A stretch of 64,000 nt of DNA from Heptranchias perlo (taxonomy: Eukaryota): positions 5,146,001 through 5,210,000 of the forward strand of contig NC_090363.1 of NCBI RefSeq assembly GCF_035084215.1, read 5' to 3'. Within the stretch, counting starts at the first letter, position 1, and every line of letters begins with the position of its first letter. The translations under genes were made by a program, and so were the position numbers. The notes under the pieces are model-generated. The model was not told the origin of the DNA. It searched no databases and worked only from the letters and a program-made list of their open reading frames with translations. Below, piece after piece: positions 51,765-64,000 of this stretch.

Positions 51765-52157
51765 TTATTTGCAGCTGGTGTATTTGGTAACCGCCTTAGT
51801 CCCTTCCGAGACGGCGTGTTTGGCCAGTTCTCCCGGCAGCAGGAGGCGAACGGAGGTCTGGATCTCCCTGGAGGAGATGGTGTGCCGCTTACTGTAATGG
51901 ATCAGGCGGGAAGCCTCGGAAGCGATGCGCTCGAAGATGTCGTTGACGAACGAGTTCATGACACTCATGGCCGAGAAAGAGATGCTGGTGTCGGGGTGCA
52001 CCTGCTTCAGCACTTTATAGATGTAGATGCTGTAAGTCCGCTTCCTGGCCTTTCTGCGCTTCTTCTCACCTTTCACCCGTTTCTTGGAGATCACTTTCTT
52101 TGTCCCCTTTTTTGGCCCTTTTTTTGGCGCTATGCCCTTTGACACTGGCTCCGGCAT
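51765..52157 (-). CDS. H2B: Histone H2B, divergent variant (130 aa)
   Basis: Intact histone fold ([13 protein letters not shown]...[23 protein letters not shown]), intronless, with stem-loop and octamer promoter. Confidence 0.97.
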
Positions 52158-57756: not shown

Positions 57757-58134
<378 letters not shown>

Positions 58135-61545: not shown

Positions 61546-61990
61546 TGACCAAGTCTCGCTCTCCGAGTTTTGTGTTACCGTGGCCTTGGTTATTAAGCTA
61601 TATAAAAGTCCTTTGCATTAATAATCAATCGATTTGCTGCTGAAACGTTGAACATTGCTCACCCGTTGCGAATAAAAGTGTCAATCTCACTCAAAGCCTT
61701 TCGCTCTGGGAATAGTTTGGACGAAGAAATAAATAAACCCTGAGCGAGGTGTGATTACCCCCCCCCCCGCCCCCAATGTGACCCTTTGGTTCAATCGGTG
61801 TAAAGACAGAAGTGAAAGTTTGCACGGTGCGTGTCACCGATGCACCCTCCTGGGAGGGTTGAAGGTTTCGGAGATCTTGCAACCAAATTGGATGCTTTTG
61901 ACAGACAGAGAAAGGCAAATAATAAACCCCTGGGGCCGCGCGCCGCTCGGCCACGCGCCGGGTCCCCGGGGGAGGAGTTGACTCTGAAAC

Positions 61991-62011
61991 GTCCGCCTTG
62001 AGATTTTAAAT
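61991..62011 (+). promoter_or_regulatory. Putative H1-variant core promoter: GTCCGC (H4-box-like) + 8 nt + TTTAAAT
   Basis: Same motif and spacing as the neighbouring H4 promoter (GTCCGC-8 nt-TATAAAA). Confidence 0.5.
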
Positions 62012-62112
62012 GGCGCCGCCGCCGCCGCCCCCTTCGGAGAATCGGTCACCGCGGCGTGGAGCGCGGACGAGCCGGAGGGAAAAGGTGCTGAACGTCGCGC
62101 CGTCACAACCAA

Positions 62113-62802
62113 ATGGGCTGGGGCGATCCGGCCGGAGACCCCTCCCGAGGCAAGAAGGCGAGGAAGAGGAGGAGCCCGCCCCGGGCGCGGCAGGCGGGCG
62201 GGCGCGCCTCCGCCACCCTGGCCGGTCAGATCATGGAGGCGGTGGCGTCTTCCAAGGAGCGCCGCGGCCTGTCGCTGGTCGCCGTCAAGAAGGTGCTGTC
62301 GGCCGCCGGCTTCGACGTGTCCAAGAACAACTCGCGGGTGAACCAGACGGTGAGGAGCCTGGTGACCAGCGGCTCGCTGCTGCAAACGGCGGGCACCGGG
62401 GCCAACGGCTCCTTCAAAGTCAACCGGCGGCGGTACGTGAAGACCAAGAGCCGCCTGGCGGCCGGCAGGAGACGGGCCGCCTCCCGGGGCCGCTACCAGA
62501 GGAAGGCGGCGGCCGCCAAGAGGAGCAGGAGGAAAAGGAGTCCCGCCAGGAAGAGCAAGCCGAGGATTCAGAGGAAGAACGGGAGAGCCGGCGGCGGTCC
62601 TGGCCAGAGAAGGGTCAGGATCAAGGGTGGCGGTGGTGTCCGGAAGGCGGTGAGGAGGGGAGTCGGGCGGCCCAGGAGAGCGGCCAAGGAGCTGCCGCCA
62701 GCGGACGGTCAACTCCGCAAGCAAGAAGCCCAGCAATACCCAAGTGATGAAACGGCCAAGGCGGATAACCGCGAGGGCGGAATCCGAGCGGAAACAATCT
62801 GA
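62113..62802 (+). CDS. H1: Linker histone H1 variant with an arginine-rich (protamine-like) tail, 229 aa
   Basis: Winged-helix domain (IMEAVASSKERRGLSLVAVKKVL...FDVSKNNSRV...LLQTAGTGANGSFKVN); in-frame stop upstream at 62089; intronless; stem-loop 28 nt after the stop. Confidence 0.93.
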   Translation: MGWGDPAGDPSRGKKARKRRSPPRARQAGGRASATLAGQIMEAVASSKERRGLSLVAVKKVLSAAGFDVSKNNSRVNQTVRSLVTSGSLLQTAGTGANGSFKVNRRRYVKTKSRLAAGRRRAASRGRYQRKAAAAKRSRRKRSPARKSKPRIQRKNGRAGGGPGQRRVRIKGGGGVRKAVRRGVGRPRRAAKELPPADGQLRKQEAQQYPSDETAKADNREGGIRAETI

Positions 62803-62830
62803 GCAAAAATATTGTGGGAACAAAAAAAAA

Positions 62831-62846
62831 GGCTCTTTTCAGAGCC
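62831..62846 (+). terminator. Histone 3' stem-loop of H1 (GGCTCTTTTCAGAGCC)
   Basis: Canonical 16-mer, ACCA flank, and purine-rich AGAAAAAGA downstream. Confidence 0.95.
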
Positions 62847-63777
62847 ACCAAAGTCCTTCAGAAAAAGATTGTTCCAAAAAGATACAATAGATATCCATTT
62901 TAAAATAAAGCTGCGGACGTGGTTTCTATTCAACGTTCTCGACGTTTTGAAGAAAAACCTGAGAATCTTGACTTGTCCTCCAGCAACTTACGAACACAAA
63001 ACACTCGAGAGCCTTTCGAACAGAAGTGGCTGCGGTCATCGTGAAACATCTTACAGACTGAAATGAGTTAGGCAAAAATATTATCAATAGAAATTATTAG
63101 TGAATAATGAAACGGTTAAGAGTTGGAATTTTGCTCCCACCTCAGATACATTGCAATGAGAAGTCACTAATCTTCCAGCACAGGAGGAGGCCATTCGGCC
63201 CATCGTGCTTGTGCCGGCTCTTTGAAAGAGCTATCCAATTAGTCCCACTCCCCCTGCTCTTTCCCCCATAGCCCTGCAAATTTGTCCTTTTCAGGTATAT
63301 ATCCAATTCCCCTTTTGAAAGTTATTATTGAATCTGCTTCCACCACCCTCAGGGAGTGCAGTATGTTTAAGGAAAGCAAGAAGTTCTGAGAACAAATTCA
63401 GCGCCCGTAGGATGGGGAGTCACGCGGTCCTCACCATTTTTCAGCATCACTCGTTAAGTCAAGTATTGTAAGCTAATCTTTTTTGGCCATCCTGTTATCA
63501 CTTCCCTTTGATCTCATTTCATAAGGCGATTTAGTTGCAATTTTATTCATTGTTTTTTTCTCCCTCAAAATTTGAATAACGCTGGAATTAACGCAACTGT
63601 TTGAAGTCTGGCAGCTTGTTTCCTTCTCTCTCTGGCGCGTCCCCTCTAAGCTCACCTCAGCTAGGTCTGCACAAAATGTATAACAACAAGATGTGAAAAT
63701 TAGCATTTTTCATTGACTGAGGTTTGATTTTGGGTGCTGATAATGAGTGGTAGAGGGAAAGGTGGTAAGGGACTGGG

Positions 63778-64000
63778 AAAAAAGCAGGACAAATCCAATC
63801 CGGCCAATTACCGCCCCATCAATCCACTCTCAATCATCAGCAAAGTGATGGAAGGTGTCGTCGACAGTGCTATCAAGCGGCACTTACTCACCAATAACCT
63901 GCTCACCGATGCTCAGTTTAGGTTCTGCCAGAACCACTCAGCTCCAGACCTCATTACAGCCTTGGTCCAAACATGGACAAAAGAGATGAATTCCAGAGGT
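63778..64000 (+). mobile_element. RT fragment of the same LINE family as 31980-34565
   Basis: Reverse complement of ~33165-33385; runs off the right edge. Confidence 0.9.

Follow-up and report, generated by a model that had tools for sequence, protein, structure and literature searches.

The gene at positions 62113..62802 (+) of the window, a 64,000-nt stretch of Heptranchias perlo contig NC_090363.1, encodes a linker histone with an arginine-rich tail. The question it raises is whether such a protein stands between H1 and the protamine-like (PL) proteins of sperm, as a sequence-only reading had supposed, or represents a different kind of specialised H1.

Structure of the gene and its product

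The coding sequence is intronless and specifies 229 amino acids, as indicated by the open reading frame, Pfam and RNA contigs in four of four runs. The product begins with an N-terminal arm (residues 1-32; 62113..62208, +), which contains seven Arg, three Lys and one SPPR motif and is similar in the orthologues described below. The arm is followed by a winged-helix globular domain of the replication-dependent type (residues 33-104; 62209..62424, +), recognised by Pfam (Linker_histone, PF00538, residues 40-104, E=1.1e-16), AlphaFold2 and Foldseek. The AlphaFold2 model, based on a 28-sequence alignment, places helices at residues 36-46, 55-64 and 73-86 and strands at 89-93 and 100-103; pLDDT is mostly above 90 in the globular domain, and the tails are of low confidence, with low pLDDT from residue 118 onward. 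The best Foldseek match to the globular domain was 9j8o_N (listed as H1.1), with an rmsd of 0.7 A. By these three methods, a winged helix flanked by basic disordered tails assigns the protein to the linker histone H1/H5 family.

The 125-aa tail that follows GSFKVN contains 30 Arg, 13 Lys and 16 Gly, and its Arg codons comprise 14 AGG, 4 AGA and 12 CGN. The approximate hand counts of the sequence-only reading (about 30 Arg against 13 Lys, about 18 AGG/AGA) are exact at 30, 13 and 18. Within the tail, a basic segment (residues 105-192; 62425..62688, +) holds 27 Arg and 11 Lys, one SPAR motif and a GRPRR motif at its end, and runs for 88 residues without Asp or Glu; the acidic C-terminal end of 37 residues (193-229; 62689..62799, +) carries all eight Asp/Glu of the tail. 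In three of the five orthologues checked, the motif corresponding to GRPRR is RPRGRPRK, which we take to be AT-hook-like; an AT-hook was not called by Pfam in any of the nine proteins scanned. The tails of the C-type H1 paralogues L005, L006 and L007 end in GRPRK or GRPRT, like the motif preceding the acidic end here. A 245-aa acidic frame without a Pfam match overlaps the gene (62010-62747, +) and was treated as a shadow of its GC-rich sequence; the ATG of this frame falls within a TATA-like box.

Second copy, histone cluster and flanking elements

A second copy lies about 195 kb away (C42:5013134-5013829, -). The two copies differ by three synonymous substitutions (four under another gap placement), no non-synonymous ones and a 6-nt in-frame indel, and they share a 1.05-kb tract, 98% identical, that extends from the promoter to just past the downstream element and is set in different flanks. 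The gene is intact, duplicated and transcribed; a pseudogene or an assembly artefact was ruled out by the differing flanks of the two copies, the synonymous-only substitutions, the orthologues and the RNA contigs.

The 400 kb around the locus were read for gene content in the 3.2-Gb assembly. Both copies belong to a cluster of 270 kb (G000:C42:5011093-5277663, ~5.01-5.28 Mb). Divergent H1 frames there number 14, 12 of them besides the gene and its copy; they are accompanied by divergent H2B, H2A, H3 and H4 genes, and stem-loops are present at nearly all of these loci. Window members include a divergent H4 gene with a stem-loop called by Rfam (57757..58068, -) and a divergent H2B gene with a stem-loop (51765..52157, -). 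This variant cluster is separate from the canonical Lys-rich H1 genes, which give at least 150 matches in the genome and lie in large arrays on other contigs. Four H2B types are present in the cluster, together with H1 subtypes that have poly-Gln N-arms, internal acidic runs or a degenerate wing. One H4 gene is interrupted by a LINE fragment, so that its start is fused to a reverse-transcriptase piece (window 63743-64000), and a decayed H4 3' part with a stem-loop is found just past the window (G000:C42:5210150-5210830).

Downstream of the gene, a histone 3' stem-loop with a purine-rich downstream element was identified (62826..62872, +; Rfam RF00032, 40.6 bits), the stem-loop beginning 28 nt past the stop codon. 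An AATAAA sequence follows at 62904-62909, past the stem-loop, within a stretch that is transcribed by read-through (62873..63205, +, the strand not being resolved by the RNA contigs that define it). Upstream, a CpG-rich promoter region (61827..62112, +), common to the second copy, contains a TATA-like TTTAAAT at 62005. The motif that we took as the H1 box for the promoter scan is absent from the 350 bases upstream of both copies; four of four canonical genes have one at -151. In its intronless structure, 3' stem-loop and position in a histone cluster the gene is like a canonical replication-dependent H1; it lacks the Lys/Ala/Pro-rich tail, the conserved K69 and K85 and the promoter H1 box. 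The stem-loop, the acidic end, the near-identical second copy and the K69/K85 loss were all absent from the sequence-only reading.

Orthologues and relationships

Orthologues were found in seven shark genera, namely Heterodontus, Carcharodon (two), Cetorhinus, Scyliorhinus (two species), Hemiscyllium, Chiloscyllium and Stegostoma (rows P0002-P0006 and P0165-P0168), and are 47-54% identical to the Heptranchias protein, which is a fast evolutionary rate of the kind that germline variants typically show. Their tail R/(R+K) is 0.48-0.65, which gives a range of 0.48-0.70 across all ten aligned sequences, and each of the ten has 6-8 Asp/Glu within its last 35 residues, the basic-then-acidic layout being kept. 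Lys-rich or pseudogenised orthologues had been named beforehand as evidence against the earlier reading; those found are Arg-rich and unbroken.

Trees of the globular domain (71 columns) were built from chosen subsets of a 176-row tree plus later matches, without HILS1, H1T2 or experimentally characterised PL-I. The subtype, including a Mobula protein, forms a clade with support of 96/92 (59 rows), 96/91 (31 rows) and 97/91 (54 rows). A wider variant clade, supported at 99/94 in the 59-row tree and 98/89 in the 54-row tree and not recovered in the 31-row LG+G4 tree, contains other cluster subtypes and, with chimaera, skate and ray members among them, sequences of Callorhinchus, Leucoraja, Rhinoraja, Hemitrygon and Pristiophorus, with Hypanus in the 59-row tree only; the D-type cluster genes are placed outside it. 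In each of Carcharodon, Heterodontus, Hypanus and Callorhinchus, several subtypes apparently lie on one contig, a sign that the cluster may be conserved; sharks and chimaeras separated about 400 million years ago.

A clade of the subtype with the two H1.0 genes of the genome was rejected (AU p=0.003), as was one with mammalian H1t (AU p=0.006, with a single H1t row, P0016), and a clade with canonical shark H1 is compatible with the data (AU p=0.25). The phylogeny that the earlier reading had proposed rejects a clade with H1.0 or with H1t, and it gives no support to PL-I ancestry by way of H1.0. The somatic-type, replication-dependent character of the globular domain, claimed from the start, is borne out by phmmer against PDB sequences, in which GH1, H1.1 and H1.4 match at about 1e-19 to 1e-18 (GH1 at 4e-19), far better than H1.0 (6e-6) and H5 (1e-4). 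Judged from these comparisons, the subtype descends from the replication-dependent H1 lineage, and the Arg-rich H1 is a distinct subtype common to sharks and at least one ray, whose Arg-rich state is not recent.

The genome's two H1.0 genes, both Lys-rich (L074 and L075, G000:C43), are separated by about 80 kb, and C18 carries a shorter version (L077). A single-exon gene, L076 (G000:C20), has a very divergent H1 globular domain and is possibly the oocyte H1. The subtype itself is apparently undescribed and annotated only as 'histone H1-like'. No description of it or of the cluster was found in a literature search whose scope left aside most subscription journals and older shark sperm-protein papers, and the available parts of PMC12216123, PMC3156773, PMC11851421 and PMC13052469 contain nothing directly on the subtype.

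The DNA-binding surface and the proposed role

Two basic positions of the globular domain are altered, numbered here by anchoring on the genome's own H1.0. Asn77 (62341..62343, +) occupies the place of H5/H1.0 K69 in DNA-binding site I, and Asn is found there in eight of eight subtype rows of the alignment. Ala93 (62389..62391, +) occupies the place of K85 in the wing, where Lys is missing in all 37 variant-clade rows, and present in four of four canonical shark rows; in 115 of 130 other rows the residue is Lys or Arg. K69 and K85 have been described as DNA-binding residues (PMC2685081, in part), and K85V shifted the docking of H5 off-dyad in simulations (PMC6129471, in part). The mean net charge of the globular domain is +5.5 in the subtype versus +9.2 in canonical shark H1; other members of the variant clade without K85 still reach +8.5. 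From the loss of both residues we infer weak nucleosome binding.

The reading that we prefer, with a probability of about 0.5, is that of a specialist linker histone with weak binding, its most probable place of action being male germ cells before protamines appear. That the protein is an old specialist H1 subtype and not a PL-I is held to be very probable; a male-germline role of the subtype is put at even odds. It is proposed that the loss of K69 and K85, together with the acidic end, would lower nucleosome affinity, that the Arg-rich segment would bind linker DNA, and that chromatin would become looser or be reorganised once the subtype protein had taken the place of somatic H1, as with mammalian H1t and HILS1. 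These two mammalian proteins bind weakly and are poor condensers (PMC6069787, in part). A germline loosener of the H1t/HILS1 kind is more likely than a sperm condenser.

Transcription and a possible red-cell function

Contigs cover the gene with 0-2 differences in four of four RNA libraries of one sample. Their depths (10, 14.5, 16.5 and 20) are low and similar, as read from libraries that were chosen for containing the gene and whose tissues are not on record, depth being a poor measure. The contigs at 62107-63205 (X1), 62031-63202 (X2) and 62235-63205 (X4) bridge the stem-loop and extend about 350 nt past it, up to a repeat; X3 covers both sides in two pieces, and at 62283 one contig matches the second copy. 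No run that contains the sequence is recorded as RNA. X1-X3 are RNA, because GT..AG splice joints with empty introns were seen at a control locus; X4, from the same sample and with the same cover pattern, showed no splice joint. DNA contamination of the runs is made unlikely by the joints in X1-X3 and by unique flanks with little or no cover. Neither the neighbouring H4 gene nor, in X4, the SYCP3-like exons have cover, and this absence is not read as silence.

A spliced SYCP3-like transcript (labelled from Pfam Cor1) has depths of 42, 24 and 4 in three of the four libraries; the SYCP3-like transcripts at L072:3500-7637 (G000:C30) adjoin a more deeply covered neighbouring transcript. The even, low presence of the H1 in all four libraries, set against this uneven depth, suggests a pattern other than that of a strictly testis gene. 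H1 is unmentioned in the main text of a catshark testis proteome paper, and tongue-sole H1-like genes are expressed in all tissues with a peak in the gonad (PMC11851421, in part).

Database names were considered as a further lead. ESM Atlas neighbours at 0.90-0.93 belong to clusters named protamine-like protein (the top one), spermatid-specific linker histone H1 and testis-specific H1, names that are automatic and serve as a lead only. The name 'protamine-like protein' is the RefSeq name of a Lys-rich teleost H1 clade with the UniRef label si:ch211-103n10.5. In zebrafish this gene is among the erythrocyte genes, with a logFC of 6.8 (PMC5725498, in part), and in a testis atlas it is a marker of the red-cell cluster (PMC8961980, in part). 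Since the top Atlas name belongs to a clade with a red-cell marker, such names lend no support to a sperm role, and the teleost database name is no evidence of one. One member of the teleost variant clade, a flounder H1 (P0017), has 21 S/T-P-X-K/R motifs. It recalls the sperm H1-related proteins of winter flounder.

The erythroid character of the teleost clade raises a serious rival, albeit one that we consider unlikely: the protein may serve as linker histone in nucleated red cells or in other somatic cells that are terminally differentiated, as an H5 analogue that arose from the replication-dependent lineage and is produced from a read-through transcript outside S phase. Avian H5 is Arg-enriched, and the two H1.0 genes of this genome are Lys-rich, with 3-4% Arg. 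Low, even presence in four of four libraries with read-through of the stem-loop is what blood in every tissue would give, and a promoter without an H1 box, against four of four canonical genes with one, points the same way. The teleost gene provides a precedent, and its clade is sister to the chondrichthyan variants in the 59-row tree (82/86); however, this relation is gone in the 54-row tree, and members of the teleost clade have Lys-rich tails (R/(R+K) 0.14-0.26) and retain K85. H5 is moreover a strong condenser with both K69 and K85, whereas the shark protein has lost both. Coverage is lower than an erythrocyte marker would lead one to expect, and the gene is accompanied by an entire set of divergent core histones.

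Origin of the arginine-rich tail

Tail R/(R+K) is 0.70 in this gene compared with 0.02-0.04 in four canonical H1 genes of the same genome and 0.07-0.10 in its two H1.0 genes, a contrast greater than chance would give, and all 12 other cluster H1 variants are Arg-enriched (0.19-0.53). AGR makes up 60% of the tail Arg codons, a share that is high when set against the 21% of 11 core-histone genes in the cluster (p=6e-5); in the tails of the other cluster variants it is 52% (p=0.55). A share that is high relative to core histones and equal to that of other variants fits Lys ancestry of the whole family, not a gene-specific change. The Lys-to-Arg switch formerly ascribed to this gene finds no support in its orthologues: at 12 (alignment A1) or 14 (A3) of the 30 tail Arg positions the majority of them have Arg too, and only 2-5 align to orthologue Lys. 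Tail Arg in Lys or mixed Lys/Arg columns number five on A1 and four on A3, all of them AGR, and the association of AGR with such columns varies between alignments (Fisher p=0.03 on A1, p=0.22 on A3). On A3, ten tail Arg stand opposite residues of other kinds, among them Ala, Pro and Gln, and six of the 13 tail Lys are also new. Arg and Lys together make up 27.1% of the protein, against 21-24% in the Arg-rich orthologues, and this lineage therefore gained basicity from an already Arg-rich ancestor.

In tunicates, Lewis and co-workers are said to have attributed the Lys-to-Arg switch to a frameshift in 2004, and reading canonical H1 tails in the +1 frame does yield 31-36% Arg. A recent origin of this kind was rejected here, the other two frames of the tail holding 4% and 2% Lys and the tail being collinear with the orthologues; on this point the sequence-only reading, which had favoured no frameshift, was right. 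Elsewhere in the cluster, a 144-aa basic frame (G000:C42:5268706-5269140, +) has a TATA-like box and a stem-loop and no winged helix, with a remnant of an H1 globular domain in another frame. It is an H1 pseudogene with a frameshift or else a basic protein made up of a tail only, and comes nearest here to the tunicate route. In the subtype, point substitutions at an early stage of the variant family, probably aided by GC-biased change, would have produced the Arg-rich state without a frameshift.

GC pressure plausibly helped the gain of Arg. GC at fourfold sites is 0.88 in this gene versus 0.67-0.71 in canonical H1, Gly, Ala, Arg and Pro make up 57% of the tail, and its Lys codons are 12 AAG to 1 AAA. 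A less likely rival than the red-cell one builds on these values: the gene may encode a minor, broadly and weakly expressed H1 whose tail results from GC-biased substitution and relaxed constraint and has no special chromatin role. The 98% tract shared by the two copies is such as gene conversion would leave, and the enrichment in all 12 other cluster variants also speaks for this reading. Yet one H1.0 gene with a GC4 of 0.83 keeps a Lys-rich tail, and the basic-then-acidic layout recurs in ten of ten sequences, the Heptranchias protein having 88 basic-part residues free of acidic ones. Another point against such neutrality is that seven shark genera and a ray have kept the subtype and that its globular domain is both conserved and distinctive.

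The protamine-like question

In the literature, PL proteins figure as winged-helix proteins that derive from H5 and are frequently cleaved (PMC13148410 and PMC11607694, each in part), with a protamine-like Arg/Lys-rich stretch of 30-50 residues (PMC13148410, in part); typical protamines have 60-80% Arg (PMC3073880, in part). The shark protein has the winged helix, according to Pfam, AlphaFold2 and Foldseek. Its ancestry is not that of the H5/H1.0 lineage, given the GH1-type domain, the rejected H1.0 clade and the stem-loop gene, and its basicity, with that of its orthologues, is below the 30.6-32.1% Arg+Lys of the four canonical shark H1 genes. PL-I proteins have an overall Arg+Lys of 35-50 mol%; their expression is confined to the testis, and they take the place of histones in sperm, in some cases with the tail removed by cleavage. 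The fold agrees, but the shark protein is not filed as PL-I because its ancestry and overall charge differ, and the PL identity considered in the sequence-only reading falls on the same two points.

Two improbable readings nevertheless keep a link with protamines. According to the first, which we rate below both the red-cell and the neutral one, a germline histone-variant cluster of cartilaginous fishes predates the shark-chimaera split, a replication-dependent H1 diversified within it into at least five Arg-enriched subtypes, all without K85, and the present subtype is a spermatid transition or PL protein with a removable acidic pro-segment. If true, this would be a second, point-mutation route from somatic H1 to protamine in vertebrates, independent of the H5 route. 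The second and least probable reading is that of a true protamine-like sperm or spermatid protein that replaces histones, with its Arg-rich segment perhaps cut out, reached from somatic H1 by an independent, point-mutational path. It can draw on the winged helix joined to a 50-aa window with 34% Arg and 48% Arg+Lys, on the higher basicity of the Heptranchias lineage compared with the orthologues, on the possibility that the acidic end is a removable pro-segment, and on the statement that sharks use PLs (PMC13148410, in part, citing Bloch 1976). However, that window is no more basic than those of canonical tails, which reach 44-48% Arg+Lys; the longest Arg run is RRR, Cys is absent, and total basicity is lower than in canonical H1. 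PLs being H5-derived, the rejection of a clade with H1.0 counts against it as well, and orthologues at 21-24% show no general drift towards protamine. Dogfish sperm, finally, uses small true protamines together with small transition proteins.

Comparison with known systems

The subtype is like replication-dependent somatic H1 (H1.1-H1.5, chicken H1, the shark arrays) in domain type, intronless structure, stem-loop and clustering with core histones, and the globular domain of mammalian H1.1/H1.4 is ~55-60% identical to its own. It differs in a tail that is Arg-rich and not Lys/Ala/Pro-rich, in the acidic end, in the lost K69 and K85 and in the missing H1 box. In contrast to canonical shark H1, with its 150 or more matches, it is present in two copies, and its transcripts read through the stem-loop. 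H5 and H1.0 resemble it in the Arg enrichment of H5 and in an expression that is probably not tied to S phase, but their globular domain is distant (E 1e-4 to 6e-6), and H1.0 is separately represented in this genome by two genes located elsewhere. The teleost si:ch211-103n10.5 clade is likewise a fish H1 variant of replication-dependent type, weakly placed as sister to the chondrichthyan variants in one of the two trees that included it; it has a Lys-rich tail, keeps K85, lacks an acidic end and is a red-cell marker in two zebrafish single-cell sets. With the PL-I proteins of bivalves, tunicates, fish and insects, the subtype shares a winged helix followed by a disordered Arg/Lys-rich segment, whereas its replication-dependent ancestry, basicity below that of somatic H1, acidic end and lack of a frameshift set it apart.

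A further parallel is offered by mammalian H1t (H1.6), H1T2 (H1.7) and HILS1 (H1.9), which are divergent and fast-evolving H1 as well, the binding of the shark subtype being predicted to be weak; language-model features of the mammalian testis variants are also similar to those of the subtype. H1t is a stem-loop gene within a histone cluster, and the likeness does not extend to orthology, which the AU test with its one H1t row rejects. The shark testis is zoned by stage (PMC13052469, in part), so the choice between a meiotic, a spermatid and a blood histone is directly testable. Should these prove to be spermatid proteins, they would bear on the long-standing idea that protamines originated from H1. 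Most of what is known about the evolution of vertebrate H1 variants comes from mammals, birds and frogs; divergent H1 subtypes that radiated and were conserved in sharks, rays and chimaeras would be an independent example.
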